Of a stretch of 32,551 nt of DNA, positions 16,075 through 29,037 are shown in pieces. The DNA comes from Candidatus Nanohaloarchaea archaeon. Lineage in GTDB: Archaea; Nanohalarchaeota; Nanosalinia; Nanosalinales; Nanosalinaceae. The translations under genes were made by a program, and so were the position numbers. Each line of letters begins with the position of its first letter. Positions within the stretch are counted from its first letter, which is position 1. Location of the stretch: assembly GCA_047617745.1 (NCBI GenBank), contig JBLGBN010000008.1, positions 1 through 32,551 on the forward strand. The letters are read 5' to 3'. The notes beneath the pieces were generated by a model that was not told where the DNA came from, searched no databases, and saw nothing but the letters and a program-made list of their open reading frames with translations.

Positions 16075-16764
16075 GTGGAAGTTAAAAGGGTATCAACGGG
16101 GAGCAAGCCTATCGACTCTTTCCTGAAAGGGGGGCTTGAGACAGGTATAATAACCAATGTATTTGGAGAATCAGGGTCTGGCAAGACCAATTTCTGCGTT
16201 CAGGCGGCAGCTCATATAGCCGAGAAGGGGAAAAAAGTGGTGTATATTGATACTGAGAAGGGTTTCTCGCCCGAGCGTTTCAAACAGATAGCTTCAGAGG
16301 AAGCACTTGAGAATATTGTACTGAACGAGCCGGTTGATTTTGAACAGCAGGAGGAAGCGATAAACTCTCTCGACGAGATAGTTGAGGAGCATGATCCCGG
16401 TATTGTTATCGTGGATTCGATGGTGTCGCTTTATCGTTTGAAGGCGAAAGGAGATCAGGTGCAGGAGGTAAACCAGCGGCTTTCACAGCAGCTTTCACAG
16501 CTCTCCAAGATCGCGAGAAAACAGGATATCCCGGTTCTTGTCACCAATCAGGTATACAGTAGTTTTGACGAGGACAGCATAGAGCTGGTCGGGAGAGACG
16601 TGCCACGTTACTGGTCCAAGTGTCTCCTCAAACTTTCAACTATGGATCAGGCAGTTAGAAAGATCGAGATCGAGAAGCATCGGTCGATGCCGGAAGGAAA
16701 ATCGGCACAGTTCAAGATAACAAATGACGGGCTTGAATCTGTCAAGAATAAAGGGCTGTTCTGA
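16075..16764 (+). CDS. radB: DNA repair protein RadB
   Basis: RecA core without N-terminal domain; GESGSGKT, YIDTE, VDSM, TNQV and the RadB-type KHR motif. Confidence 0.92.
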   Translation: MEVKRVSTGSKPIDSFLKGGLETGIITNVFGESGSGKTNFCVQAAAHIAEKGKKVVYIDTEKGFSPERFKQIASEEALENIVLNEPVDFEQQEEAINSLDEIVEEHDPGIVIVDSMVSLYRLKAKGDQVQEVNQRLSQQLSQLSKIARKQDIPVLVTNQVYSSFDEDSIELVGRDVPRYWSKCLLKLSTMDQAVRKIEIEKHRSMPEGKSAQFKITNDGLESVKNKGLF

Positions 16765-16780
16765 GCCAACCAGCGAATTA

Positions 16781-17095
16781 TTTATAAATCTTTGATTTAT
16801 AGTGAGGGTTATGGAGCCATCAACTAAAGGTGGACGCGTTCTGCACTGGTAAGTTCAATCGAGCTCCAGCTATATTCTCAGATTTCTCAATAGTTTCATT
16901 CGATTCTATCGACTCTATTAGCATTATCGTGCTGATCCTGCTACTGGCACTGCTGCTGTAAAAAGCGCAGTGTTCGCTTCTCGTTTCTCAATTTCGAGGT
17001 GAACACAACTCTATGAAAACTACAACAAACAACACCAATGCATACGCAAACTCAAAACCTGTAACAGCTGCAGAAATGGAGGTGAAAAACTAGTG
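16781..17095 (+). other. Small-ORF leader cassette, copy 1
   Basis: TTTATAAA 16781; ORFa 16811-16852 MEPSTKGGRVLHW; +1-frame ORFb 16830-16961 (43 aa); hairpin 16946-16974; SD GAGGTGA; ORFc 17013-17093 (26 aa) overlapping the next start. Homologous to 28744-29037. Confidence 0.7.
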
Positions 17096-17674
17096 GACCC
17101 GATTGATGGGAAAGGATTTGCCGGAGTTACAGATGAGGGCGGCGTTAGGCCGTCAGGTAACAGAGATTACTTCATCGGTACAGAAACCGGCCATGAAGAG
17201 GTAAGTCAGGTTTTCCAGGATTCAAAGTACTTTGAGGAATCTGAGGGATCAGGGGTAAAGTACTCTGCTCCGGGCATAGATGTAGACGTTACCGGTAAAG
17301 GGATAGAGTACGATGTCGATAAGCAGGCTGATGACGGAGCCGTAACCGAGTTCGTTCACGGAATAGTAAGATCCTTTGACGACGTTGAGGAAGAGTTCTT
17401 CTCTGAAGTGGAACAGGCAGTATACAACTCCACCAGAGAAATAATAGCTGACGGCGGAACCCTTGAAGATGTAGACCATAGCAGTCCTTACGAATCGGAG
17501 GTAGAACCTGAAGGTTCTCAGGAATCAATGGAACGCGGGATCGGATATCAGGACGAACACGAGAAGATCGCCGACGGTGGCGAGGAAATAATGGGCATCC
17601 CGCTCGCCGGCTTCCCGTCCAACGTAGAGAGGACGAAGAAGAAAGACTCAGACAACTACATGGGGTCTTTCTAG
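17093..17674 (+). CDS. Hypothetical acidic protein with two IADGG motifs
   Basis: 193-aa ORF, GGAGGTGA SD 7 nt before GTG, acidic composition like the other genes. Confidence 0.8.
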   Translation: MDPIDGKGFAGVTDEGGVRPSGNRDYFIGTETGHEEVSQVFQDSKYFEESEGSGVKYSAPGIDVDVTGKGIEYDVDKQADDGAVTEFVHGIVRSFDDVEEEFFSEVEQAVYNSTREIIADGGTLEDVDHSSPYESEVEPEGSQESMERGIGYQDEHEKIADGGEEIMGIPLAGFPSNVERTKKKDSDNYMGSF

Positions 17675-17696
17675 CCCTTTCCCCCTCTTTTTTCTC
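17675..17696 (+). terminator. Pyrimidine/T-tract terminator
   Basis: CCCTTTCCCCCTCTTTTTTCTC immediately after the stop. Confidence 0.55.
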
Positions 17697-17731
17697 AATT
17701 TATTAAACAGTCAGTGAGTATAACCGTTAAC

Positions 17732-18001
17732 ATGGACCTAGAGGACTACCGGAAGGAAATTGACAGGGTTAACACCGAGATCGCCGATGCAGTTTCCCGC
17801 AGAATGAATATAGTTGAGGAGATCGGTGAGTACAAGAAAGAAAAAGGAATGGAAATCAAAGATGAAGGAAGAGAGGAGAAGGTGAAACAGCAGTTTGAGA
17901 AACTGTTTGAAAGAGAAGATCTTCCAAAGGAGAAGGGTCGTGAAATGGCAGAGCTTCTGATCGAAATGGCGCTGGAAGAGGAAAAGGGTGGTGAAAACTG
18001 A
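17732..18001 (+). CDS. Chorismate mutase (AroQ type)
   Basis: LEDYRKEIDRVNTEI...RRMNIVEEIGEYKKEKG..IKDEGRE; TATA-like TTTATTAA about 26 nt upstream of ATG 17732. Confidence 0.88.
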   Translation: MDLEDYRKEIDRVNTEIADAVSRRMNIVEEIGEYKKEKGMEIKDEGREEKVKQQFEKLFEREDLPKEKGREMAELLIEMALEEEKGGEN

Positions 18002-18777
18002 AAGTAGCATTTCTGGGCCCTGAAGGAACCTACACTCACCAGGCGGTTGACCAGTACTTCTCAGACTACGAGCCAGTTACCTGCTCAAGTATTAAAGAAT
18101 CAGTTGAATCCGCTGAAGTAGCTGTTATACCTTTTGAAAACTCTCTGGGTGGAGGAGTAGGCGAGGCTATTGACATACTGAGAGAGAAAAATCTTGAAGT
18201 CACAGGAGAGATTCTGGTCGAAATCGATCATGTACTGGCTTCGGAAGGCAGCTTTGAAGATATACAGAAGATCCGCTCACATCCTCAGGCGTTAAGCCAG
18301 TGCCGGGAGATGATTGAAGAAAACGGCTGGGAGGAAGTGGAGTCTTCTTCAACTGCGAAGGCAGCTGAGGAGATAGAGGAAAACGAGGCCGCGATATGTT
18401 CGCGACTCGCTGCTGAACTTAATGACCTTGAGATCCTCAGAGAAAGCGTTCAGGACGAGAAATCAAACACTACGAGATTTCTTGTGATAGGCGGAGAGAA
18501 AGAGACCGAGCCGGGTAAAACCTCGTTTGTTCTGGAGCCTGGAGATGACCGCCCTGGGCTTCTGGGCAGCATGCTTTCATGCTTCTCCGGCCACGGCATA
18601 AACCTATCCTACATACAGTCAAGACCAACAAGAGACGGTTTAGGAGAATACTATTTCTATGTGGAAGCAGAGGAAAACGAGAACTCGGAGAGCATGGAAG
18701 AAGCGATGAGATGCCTGAAGACTTACGCAGATGTCAAAAACCTTGGTTCCTACAGGAAAGGTGAGAAAAATGTTTAG
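17998..18777 (+). CDS. pheA: Prephenate dehydratase with ACT domain (non-canonical CTG start)
   Basis: Frame open from CTG 17998: LKVAFLGPEGTYTH..PFENS..SHPQALSQC..NTTRF..DRPGLL..IQSRP. The ORF track shows only the last 155 aa. Confidence 0.9.
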   Translation: MKVAFLGPEGTYTHQAVDQYFSDYEPVTCSSIKESVESAEVAVIPFENSLGGGVGEAIDILREKNLEVTGEILVEIDHVLASEGSFEDIQKIRSHPQALSQCREMIEENGWEEVESSSTAKAAEEIEENEAAICSRLAAELNDLEILRESVQDEKSNTTRFLVIGGEKETEPGKTSFVLEPGDDRPGLLGSMLSCFSGHGINLSYIQSRPTRDGLGEYYFYVEAEENENSESMEEAMRCLKTYADVKNLGSYRKGEKNV

Positions 18778-19873
18778 AGACAGGGTTGAGAACATAGATC
18801 TCTCGATAAGAAAAATAGCGGAAAAAGCCGGGAAGAAAGAGGAATGCGTCCGTTTTGATATTGGTCAGCCAAGCTTTGACACACCTCAGCACATTAAAGA
18901 TGCGGCTGAAAAAGGCCTGGAGAATAAACAGGGATACTCTCCTATGTTAGGAATTGAGGAGCTGAGAGAAGCTGTTTTGGGAGAGGAAGAGCTAAAGCAA
19001 GGTATTTCTGGCCTTGGAAAAGAAAATGTGATGATAACGACCGGTGGAATGGGTGCTTTATACGCCGTTTTCTCCGCACATCTTGGCTCCGAGGATAAAG
19101 CTGTGTTCAATGATCCATGCTGGGGTCCGTACAAGATGATCAGCGAAATCAACGGCAACCAGTGGGAACAGGTAGAATACTGGAACGGGGATGATGAACT
19201 AAGAGAAGAAGCGAAGGATAAGATCAGAGAAGCCGATTTCTTTATAGTCAACACTCCGTCCAACCCAACCGGTAAAGTGCTATCTGAGGAACAGGCTAGA
19301 GAAATTGGAGACTTTGCAGATAAAACCGGTACTTTGATGATTTCTGATGAGGTATACCACCGTTTAACCTTTGGAAAAGAGCATTACTCGCCTGCAGTTC
19401 ACTCAGATAATTCTGTGATAATTGGATCGGTTTCAAAGAACCATGCGATGACCGGCTGGAGAGTTGGATGGGTCGTCGCTCCTGAAGACAGTATAGAGCA
19501 GTACGCAAAAGTTTCGAGAGCGACTACTGCCTGTCCGCCGAGAATATCGCAGTACGCAGCGGTTGAAGCCCTGGAAAATGATTCTCATGTCGGAGAGATG
19601 AGAGAGACTTACAGGGAGAGGAGAGATCTGTTAGTTGAAAGAATGGAGGAGCTTGGATGGGATTTCGAGATTCCAGAAGGCTCGATCTACGCGTTCCCGG
19701 AGGTTGGCAGGGATTCCTGGGATTTCTGCCTTGAAATGGTTGAGAAAGGAGTTGCCATGGTTCCTGGAGAGCCGATGGGGCCGGAAAGCGATCAAAACGT
19801 CAGGATATGTTTCGGCTCAACGACGAAAGAAGAGATCAATAGGGCGTTCGACATCTTGGAGGGAGAACTATGA
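18770..19873 (+). CDS. PLP-dependent class I aminotransferase (aromatic/aspartate)
   Basis: GQPSF, NTPSNPTG, SDEVY, SVSKNHAMTGWRVG; SD AGGTGA before ATG 18770. Confidence 0.92.
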   Translation: MFRDRVENIDLSIRKIAEKAGKKEECVRFDIGQPSFDTPQHIKDAAEKGLENKQGYSPMLGIEELREAVLGEEELKQGISGLGKENVMITTGGMGALYAVFSAHLGSEDKAVFNDPCWGPYKMISEINGNQWEQVEYWNGDDELREEAKDKIREADFFIVNTPSNPTGKVLSEEQAREIGDFADKTGTLMISDEVYHRLTFGKEHYSPAVHSDNSVIIGSVSKNHAMTGWRVGWVVAPEDSIEQYAKVSRATTACPPRISQYAAVEALENDSHVGEMRETYRERRDLLVERMEELGWDFEIPEGSIYAFPEVGRDSWDFCLEMVEKGVAMVPGEPMGPESDQNVRICFGSTTKEEINRAFDILEGEL

Positions 19874-20727
19874 TTGACCAGAGAATTGCTATACTCGGAG
19901 GTACCGGCCAGTTCGGACAGCACTTGGGAGAACATCTCGAAGAGAACAACGAGATAGTTATCTCCGGAAAAGATACTGAAGAGGCTGAAAAAGTTGCGGA
20001 AGAAAACGGCTGGGAGTACGGCTCAAACAAGGAGGTTGTCAGGGATGCAGATGTCGTTATAGTCGCGGTACCTATCGCTGTAACCGTAGAGGTTATACAT
20101 GAGGTCGGCACCGAGATCTCCGATGATACACTGTTATGTGATATTACCTCTGTAAAGAAGAAGCCTGTTGAGGCCATGATGAACTATTCAGACGAAGTTC
20201 TCGGCATGCATCCGATGTATGCACCCAGCAATTCAATTAGAGGGCAGAAAGTGGTACTAACACCAGAAAAGGGGCAGAAATGGACCGAGATGGAGGAATT
20301 CTGGACTGAAAATGGCGCTGATACGCATATTACCGATCCTGAATCCCATGATAAAGCAATGTCCCTGGTTCAGGGACTGATGCATTTCTCGGAACTGGTT
20401 GTAGCCGAAACCATCAGGAAATCGGATATTGGCGGCGAGGAAATGTCGAACTATTCTTCGCCTGTCTACCAGTTAATAACTGATCTAACTGCCCGAATGC
20501 TGAACCAGAAACCGGGTCTTTACGGCAGTATACAGGCCGAGAACCCGGAAAATGTCGAGGTCCGGGAGAGGTTTATCGAGTCCGCCGAAGATATCCGGGA
20601 ACTGATCGGTGACGAGGAAGCTTTCAGCCGGAAGTTTGAGGAGCTCGGTGGAGAGTTCGATCTTGAAGGAGCGCAGGACAGAACTGACTCGGTTATCGAG
20701 TTTCTTTCTGATGATGTAAGAGAATAA
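19870..20727 (+). CDS. tyrA: Prephenate/arogenate dehydrogenase
   Basis: ILGGTGQFG Rossmann motif, DITSVK, HPMYAP, HDKAMSLVQGLMH; ATGA overlap with the upstream gene. Confidence 0.9.
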   Translation: MIDQRIAILGGTGQFGQHLGEHLEENNEIVISGKDTEEAEKVAEENGWEYGSNKEVVRDADVVIVAVPIAVTVEVIHEVGTEISDDTLLCDITSVKKKPVEAMMNYSDEVLGMHPMYAPSNSIRGQKVVLTPEKGQKWTEMEEFWTENGADTHITDPESHDKAMSLVQGLMHFSELVVAETIRKSDIGGEEMSNYSSPVYQLITDLTARMLNQKPGLYGSIQAENPENVEVRERFIESAEDIRELIGDEEAFSRKFEELGGEFDLEGAQDRTDSVIEFLSDDVRE

Positions 20728-28743: not shown

Positions 28744-29037
28744 TTTAAATATACTCTAACAGTTTTAGAGTATGAAGCCAGCAACTAAGGGTGGACGTTT
28801 TGTACTCCGCCGATCACTTTTCCACAGTTAATTATGGCTTCATCTCAAACCCAGTTTTCTCGCTTGATTCAGTAGTAGTTTCTGCTTTTTCGCTGGTACT
28901 TCCGGATGTGGAAGTGGCAGTGCCTGTAAGATAATTTTTCTCTAGGTGAATCCAAAGATGAACATTCAACCACACAACACCGCTATGCCATACCAATTAC
29001 AAATCTTGACAGAGCTGGAAGGAGGTGAAAAATAATG
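28744..29037 (+). other. Small-ORF leader cassette, copy 2
   Basis: TTTAAATA 28744; ORFa 28772-28831 MKPATKGGRFVLRRSLFHS; +1-frame ORFb 28791-28934 (47 aa); hairpin 28891-28922; SD AGGTGA; ORFc 28958-29035 (25 aa) overlapping the next ATG. Confidence 0.7.

Follow-up and report, generated by a model that had tools for sequence, protein, structure and literature searches.

Two intergenic regions lying 12 kb apart on a small archaeal contig carry the same ordered parts, over roughly 300 nt, in front of genes that bear no obvious relation to each other, which raises the question of what such a leader does. The window analysed here (32,551 nt) is contig C8 of an 834-kb genome, labelled G000, whose proteins are acidic. 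From the letters alone, the first-pass annotation had described two copies of an ordered small-ORF cassette, and every part that it listed is found at its place in both copies (Table 1). The ATG follows the TATA box by 21 nt in copy 1 and by 20 nt in copy 2, the 26-mer beginning there is identical at 23 of 26 positions, an overlapping +1-frame ORF runs from the GTG, ORF C has the two lengths given for it, and GGAGGTGAAAA and a 1-nt stop/start overlap into the target gene are present in both. The likeness TGGCASTGC..CTGTAA also recurs in both copies, although not in the same role: it supplies the stop and hairpin in copy 1, whereas in copy 2 it consists of Val codons that precede the stop. Homology between the copies extends past the 26-mer, with a similarity (z 7.95) that none of 500 dinucleotide shuffles reached; the middle part alone gives z 3.2 and the 3' part z 6.3.

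Table 1. Features of the two leader cassettes and their targets (window coordinates).
Feature	Position	Strand	Basis or remark
Copy 1 TATA box	16781..16789	+	sequence; conserved column block in relatives
Copy 1 ORF A, 0 frame, 13 codons, probably leaderless entry ORF	16811..16852	+	leaderless status suggested by TATA distance
Copy 1 internal SD-like hexamer AGGTGG, complementary to 16S rRNA 3' end	16828..16833	+	
Copy 1 proposed slip site: E codon CGC, P codon GTT, A codon CTG (putative Leu sensor)	16835..16843	+	sequence; cognate rule; P-codon rule
Copy 1 +1 frame (ORF B), 43 codons from GTG	16830..16961	+	putative post-slip decoding from 16842; 61% pyrimidine
Copy 1 ORF B terminal Leu run: 6 CTG, 1 CTA	16926-16958	+	
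Copy 1 11-bp hairpin, ORF B stop in loop	16946..16974	+	covariation in 12 sequences
Copy 1 U/C tract, 3' of hairpin	about 16975-16995	+	
Copy 1 SD of ORF C, predicted to pair with upstream tract	16996..17006	+	folding
Copy 1 ORF C, 26 codons, no Leu; inner SD at 17078; stop overlaps target start	17013..17093	+	
Copy 1 target: 193-aa acidic orphan, 2 Leu in 192 residues	17093..17674	+	
Copy 2 TATA box	28744..28751	+	sequence
Copy 2 ORF A, 0 frame, 19 codons	28772..28831	+	sequence
Copy 2 SD-like GGGTGG, E codon CGT, P codon TTT, A codon GTA (putative Val sensor)	28789..28804	+	
Copy 2 +1 frame, 47 codons from GTG	28791..28934	+	8 Val in last 20 codons, 7 of them GTA/GTG
Copy 2 hairpin	28898-28915	+	
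Copy 2 ORF C, 25 codons, no Val; SD 28944-28950; inner SD 29021	28958..29035	+	
Copy 2 target: 75-aa acidic orphan, 1 Val in 74 residues	29035..29262	+	

The downstream genes were said not to be obviously homologous, and blastp of the two target proteins against each other returned no match at E 1e-3; neither has a Pfam family. A database search with the copy 1 target gave three matches, one of them itself, with no usable Atlas match and a poor predicted model, and the N-terminus of the copy 2 target is related to two other targets of Val cassettes. No known non-coding RNA was recognized by Rfam in the window at the gathering score or in 16700-17200 at E up to 5. Whole-leader folding is no better than that of shuffles (z -1.6 and -0.9), which speaks against the structured-RNA reading offered earlier. 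As for further copies, G000 holds no third full cassette, only the two plus one simple site before the glycyl-tRNA synthetase (GlyRS) gene, but relatives carry more: copy 1 has BLAST matches in 13 of 36 genomes of the same family and in 0 of 24 others, for the most part just behind radB and frequently with another cassette close by. In these relatives the peptide sequences drift while the frames stay, a short 0-frame ORF A being followed by an overlapping +1 ORF of variable length. The suggestion of a cis-regulatory, uORF- or attenuator-like leader is thus backed by an ORF order and frames that relatives have kept. The first-pass annotation did not flag the key triplet, which comes right after the GG(R/C)(V/F) codons of the 26-mer; with it went the sensed cognate codon, a probable +1 frameshift and the occurrence of the same site before tRNA synthetase and biosynthesis genes. 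The leader is real and very probably a functional amino-acid-sensing frameshift leader, and we put the probability that it is a programmable amino-acid sensor acting via +1 ribosomal frameshifting at about 0.8.

The core site reads R-GGU-GRA-YRY-(G/U)UU-NNN and follows a TATA box and a probably leaderless ATG. A search pattern consisting of a TATA box, a start codon and RGGTGRAYRYKTT, with the P codon restricted to GUU or UUU, was found in 50 of 70 genomes of the phylum; the reversed-pattern control gave 3 hits. Regions around 121 pattern matches were taken (two matches at contig ends were left out, and two loci, L019 and L105, proved to be without a site), and with the window added and one duplicate removed they make up a set of 163 sites in 143 leaders, hence a family of over 160 candidate +1 sites. 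Of the 127 matches in which the pattern left the frame free, 112 have the ATG in frame with the GGT. Beyond the phylum, a sister DPANN phylum, which contains a record titled Aenigmatarchaeota, has the pattern in 28 of 251 genomes with 16 control hits, and of 28 loci examined there, 12 showed all three of a start in frame, a short ORF A and a coupled protein. Pattern counts in a sample of 201 genomes of Nanoarchaeota stayed at the control level (17 genomes and 17 control hits). A scan across all species gave no convincing case in 57 of 76 stretches, the other 19, nanohaloarchaeal or already included, being set aside; among the at least 129 matches listed in a metagenome scan, 9 passed the frame filter and 2 resemble family members. 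Within G000, a site precedes one of the ten synthetase genes found, so that use of the site is patchy. That third site, on the minus strand of contig C19 near 13897 (L103), carries the Gly codon GGA, and its +1 ORF overlaps the GlyRS start by 8 nt.

What the site reads is indicated by its last triplet. NNN is cognate to the amino acid of the target at 50 of the 50 sites whose target is tied by profile (HMM) searches to a single amino acid, the remaining 113 of 163 having orphan or non-specific targets that cannot test the rule. These 50 targets comprise 13 valyl-tRNA synthetases (ValRS; most of them assigned as the best match on 330-residue fragments, below the full-length cut-off), nine ThrRS, six GlyRS, five CysRS, four SerRS, four threonine dehydratases and one each of TrpRS, TrpD, HisRS, HisG, PheRS, LysRS, ProRS, LeuRS and TyrRS, so that 13 amino acids are each paired with their own gene class. 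The sites share descent and are not 50 independent events; in 100,000 label shuffles the mean was 7 cognate sites and the maximum 19. The neighbouring codons are cognate at 0, 0, 3 and 2 of the 50 sites, and 20 of the 50 were scored after the rule had been set. In the sister phylum the count is 12 of 12 (five ProRS, two IleRS, two cysteine synthases, two asparagine synthetases A and one AsnRS). Amino-acid-specific sensing is thus almost certain for the family, and by their triplets copy 1 would respond to Leu (CTG) and copy 2 to Val (GTA). GTA is the commonest Val sensor codon, used at 18 of 25 Val sites, some of them before ValRS.

Two other explanations meet this rule directly. If the repeat were a non-autonomous mobile element (MITE) or a chance similarity, two dispersed copies before unrelated genes would be natural; the position after radB is nevertheless conserved across genera, G000 holds two full copies only, the absence of terminal inverted repeats noted at first bears out among the 25 longest inverted repeats examined, and codon and target agree. 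Because the cognate rule holds, we regard this idea as refuted, its residual probability being negligible. T-box riboswitches also use one specifier codon, have synthetase and biosynthesis genes as targets and occur in tandem arrangements, and the leaders share all of this: a single cognate codon, the same kinds of target and tandem sites. An uncharged tRNA reading the triplet on ribosome-free RNA would account for it. The leaders are short and not unusually structured, however; Rfam found one tRNA and no other match, hence no T-box RNA, in 20 target loci, the ATG is in frame with the codon in the proportion given above, and the +1 frame is always open, as expected where a translating ribosome reads the codon. 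A T-box-like device is therefore very unlikely.

The direction of the response is suggested by the composition of the targets, mostly unrelated orphans. In targets of Leu, Ile and Val cassettes the sensed residue makes up 2.7, 0.7 and 4.0% of the protein, against reference values of 7.5, 4.0 and 7.8% (label permutation p 5e-5 over 24 proteins shorter than 300 aa, with five longer ones set aside). The target of copy 1 has 17 Val beside its two Leu, and that of copy 2 has seven Leu beside its single Val. The shortage of the sensed residue fixes the sign: these are proteins built for production when that amino acid is scarce, and it is very likely that the target is switched on under starvation.

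How the ribosome would reach the target is seen from the reading frames. The +1 frame is open for at least 20 codons at 163 of 163 sites and always opens with the GTG inside the motif, and in frame 0 a stop comes within 18 codons at 147 of 163. Two layouts occur: the target is encoded in the +1 frame itself, as with TrpD and one cysteine synthase, or the +1 frame terminates at the target start. For the 49 annotated targets lying outside the +1 frame, the +1 stop falls within -15 to +20 nt of the target start in 43 cases, compared with none for frame 0 and one for frame +2; the remaining six comprise four Ile cassettes, HisG (18 nt) and a TyrRS whose start was mis-called. The 3' end of the G000 16S rRNA, GGAUCACCUCC, is complementary to RGGUGR, and this hexamer ends 4 nt before the P codon, whereas the spacing at normal starts peaks at 6-7 nt. 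E-site codons are often CGC or CGU. The P codon, which the search required to be GUU or UUU, is GUU at 61 sites and UUU at 102; the variants CUU and AUU gave one hit in 50 genomes. A purine-start A codon follows GUU at 0 of 61 sites compared with 65 of 102 for UUU, and counted by amino acid GUU occurs with none of five purine-start classes and with all eight pyrimidine-start classes. This avoidance is as predicted by re-pairing on UUN, where tRNA-Val shifted to UUR would keep one pair only and tRNA-Phe two. In L003, a relative from the same genus, ORF A is fused in frame to the Leu-run ORF and the site is lost. A +1 ribosomal slip at the hungry codon is, on this comparative evidence, quite likely. 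The fused form (L003 / L105) may be a natural single-stage variant or an assembly error.

The same observations may be read without a slip if the GTG serves as an independent start of ORF B, controlled through re-initiation or occlusion by a ribosome that has paused or terminated on ORF A. Every motif has this GTG, always in frame with ORF B, and the stop of ORF A lies close behind it. However, GGUG is already explained by pairing with the 16S tail, there is no SD upstream of the GTG, and the avoidance of purine-start codons after GUU would go unexplained. Moreover, a ribosome at the hungry codon covers the GTG and would turn synthetase and biosynthesis genes off in starvation, opposite to what target composition indicates. 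We consider such a stall sensor improbable and retain the frameshift.

In the frameshift scheme, a ribosome would initiate at the ATG just past the promoter and translate ORF A, a frame supported by comparison. Once GUU or UUU occupies the P site, the 16S tail would pair with RGGUGR 4 nt upstream, closer than at normal starts by the computed pairing and spacing, and, by analogy with the RF2 model, this may strain the ribosome. When the cognate tRNA is charged, the ribosome would keep frame and stop 2-36 codons on, leaving the gene off; when it is scarce, the P-site tRNA would re-pair one base on and the ribosome would enter the +1 frame, hence the target gene or a stop at its start. The window copies would be a two-stage, branched-chain version in which the post-slip ribosome meets a run of the same codons; in Leu cassettes that run supplies the left arm of a hairpin that is followed by a U/C tract, and a ribosome stalled on it would block this terminator-like hairpin, so that RNA polymerase continues. 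ORF C, through its overlap with the next gene, may serve as a portable coupler that passes ribosomes to a fast-changing orphan gene. More broadly, it is likely that two DPANN phyla share a protein-free and structure-free regulon in which the ribosome is the sensor, with a swappable hungry codon and an RF2-like +1 slip, wired in parallel (Val/Ile/Leu, OR) or in series (two slips, AND), with a second codon-run check, archaeal termination and orphan outputs built without the starved residue.

The second stage is visible in the tails of the +1 ORFs. Their last 12 codons hold on average 8.1 Leu in Leu-only cassettes (n=9), 3.8 Val in Val-only cassettes (n=4) and 5.0 Ile in Ile-only cassettes (n=2); the figure for 98 other leaders is about 1, and they have no such tail. 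CTG and CTA account for 61 of 73 Leu codons in the Leu tails compared with 45% genome-wide. Both window copies have the cognate codon run in the +1 frame, and a run in the frame of ORF A is seen only in L003. Twelve aligned Leu or Ile+Leu cassettes have an 11-bp hairpin whose left arm consists of the last +1 codons and whose loop contains the stop; 99% of its cells are paired, with 4 of 11 pairs changed on both sides; slid controls were 27-64% paired, a lenient comparison given that the structure was derived from the same 12 sequences. This stop-enclosing hairpin is absent from copy 2, which makes a second stage less certain there.

ORF C has 23-29 codons in 30 of 34 unfused cases, contains an SD and usually overlaps the next start, and in three loci it is fused to threonine dehydratase. 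The hydrophobic C-terminus of ORF B and the conserved length of ORF C would suit a small-peptide operon, as had been proposed, with ORF B encoding a membrane peptide such as a type I toxin and ORF C its partner. Against that reading stand the threonine dehydratase fusions and the tail of the +1 peptide, which is rich in Leu, Ile or Val according to the sensor codon, is missing from the 98 other leaders and, in Leu tails, favours CTG and CTA; we judge it highly improbable.

For the output step, two routes were weighed. At five sites (L110, L344, L346, L347 and L350), a cognate tRNA gene whose anticodon matches the sensed codon lies within the +1 frame, and G000 encodes aCPSF1/FttA; together these favour terminator read-through, that is, a transcriptional output. 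Coupled ribosomes could exclude aCPSF1 according to a proposal in a review (PMC8116511). Anti-termination thus seems somewhat better than an even bet. In folding models of 27 cassettes the SD of ORF C has a mean accessibility of 0.24 when free of ribosomes and 0.25-0.29 with a ribosome placed along the tail, and in copy 1 it is 0.00 throughout. As the modelled ribosome leaves this SD closed, simple unmasking is unsupported, and a purely translational unmasking is possible though doubtful. Translational coupling at the stop/start overlaps probably also acts. A role of the 5' motif as anti-anti-SD was likewise dropped, the motif occurring in about 100 leaders without such a hairpin.

Several leaders carry more than one site. 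Two or three sites (Val+Ile+Leu, Ile+Leu or Val+Leu) share the same 0 frame and lead into one +1 frame with a mixed tail in L078, L021, L086, L096 and L097. Two His sites are arranged in series in L029, L049, L094 and L135, the second within the +1 frame of the first and leading into a short ORF; the C-terminal part of that ORF in L094 matches the MazE/AbrB-type PF04014, and genes that look HisG-like by eye, with no HMM hit, lie downstream in L029 and L049. Sites for Trp (L034), Ser (L100) and Phe (L113) are likewise found as pairs in series. Seven Trp leaders (L031, L032, L062, L064, L122, L131 and L132) consist of two promoter-plus-site units, the first +1 ORF often ending ISS(V/I)KNFSW-like and the second +1 frame being the gene (GNAT, GCS2-like or orphan).

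Among known systems, the RF2 shift site is closest in form: GGU GRA YRY KUU NNN overlays it codon for codon. In prfB the SD lies 3 nt before the CUU_U shift site (Atkins et al. 2016, PMC5009743). Both have an SD-like stimulator close upstream, a P codon ending in UU that can re-pair at +1, a slow A-site sensor and a short 0-frame ORF. Unlike RF2, where the A site is UGA, the A site here is a sense codon swappable among at least 14 amino acids; the P site is GUU or UUU rather than CUU, the spacer 4 nt rather than 3, and the E codons CGC or CGU, whereas weak E-site pairing has been proposed for RF2. The leaders are moreover archaeal and serve many genes other than prfB, mostly through a leader.

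The ilv, leu and trp leaders are ribosome-mediated attenuators, and a preprint describes mycobacterial leaderless sORFs encoding polycysteine in the same terms (bioRxiv 10.1101/834739). The second stage in the window resembles them in its leaderless short ORF, cognate codon run, putative competing hairpins and ribosome-run regulon, but its run lies in a frame to which only a change of frame gives access, and the majority of the family show a single sensing codon with no run. Frame changes in a leader ORF that affect a downstream gene are also described for ermCL, which is ketolide-induced, and pheL in the 2016 review (PMC5009743); ermCL, however, senses a drug, and the pheL shift is called incidental. 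The yeast Ty1 and ABP140 shift at CUU_AGG (same source) is likewise a +1 slip at a slow sense codon, but one set by a rare tRNA, with no SD and no amino-acid-specific regulon. In its working the leader resembles the RF2 shift and in its role a T-box or attenuator, but it lacks a defining feature of each.

The 2016 review states that no productive use of starvation-driven frameshifting at hungry codons was known (PMC5009743), and a 2021 review lists a single programmed frameshift demonstrated in cellular genes of archaea (PMC8211752). Five highly expressed ncRNAs are reported by Reva et al. (2023, PMC10266531). Our search of the open literature found no description of such control. The family, with its one-codon specificity switch, suggests how tiny, host-dependent archaea may track amino-acid supply, and offers a direct test case for SD-stimulated frameshifting and for archaeal transcription-translation coupling. 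It labels dozens of orphan genes with the amino acid whose scarcity should induce them, implies mis-annotated starts for some genes (TrpD, a cysteine synthase) and, with a site of about 16 nt, could serve as a programmable amino-acid sensor.

Some features of the neighbouring and target genes may be added. Genes for chorismate mutase, prephenate dehydratase, an aminotransferase and prephenate dehydrogenase lie 3' of the copy 1 target (window 17714-20727); a pyrimidine tract near 17678-17700 lies ahead of the chorismate mutase-prephenate dehydrogenase genes, before which no Phe or Tyr site was found. Large acidic proteins of 560-650 aa stand behind Leu sites in L040, L041, L043, L046, L048, L057, L061 and L068, six of which were scanned with no Pfam hit, and a glutamine amidotransferase-like family stands behind the Leu sites of L039, L063 and L126. 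Finally, an (A/T)DGG motif is enriched about 11-fold in cassette targets, including that at 17093-17674 in the window, with 19 occurrences in 5101 aa compared with 63 in 190,568 aa.
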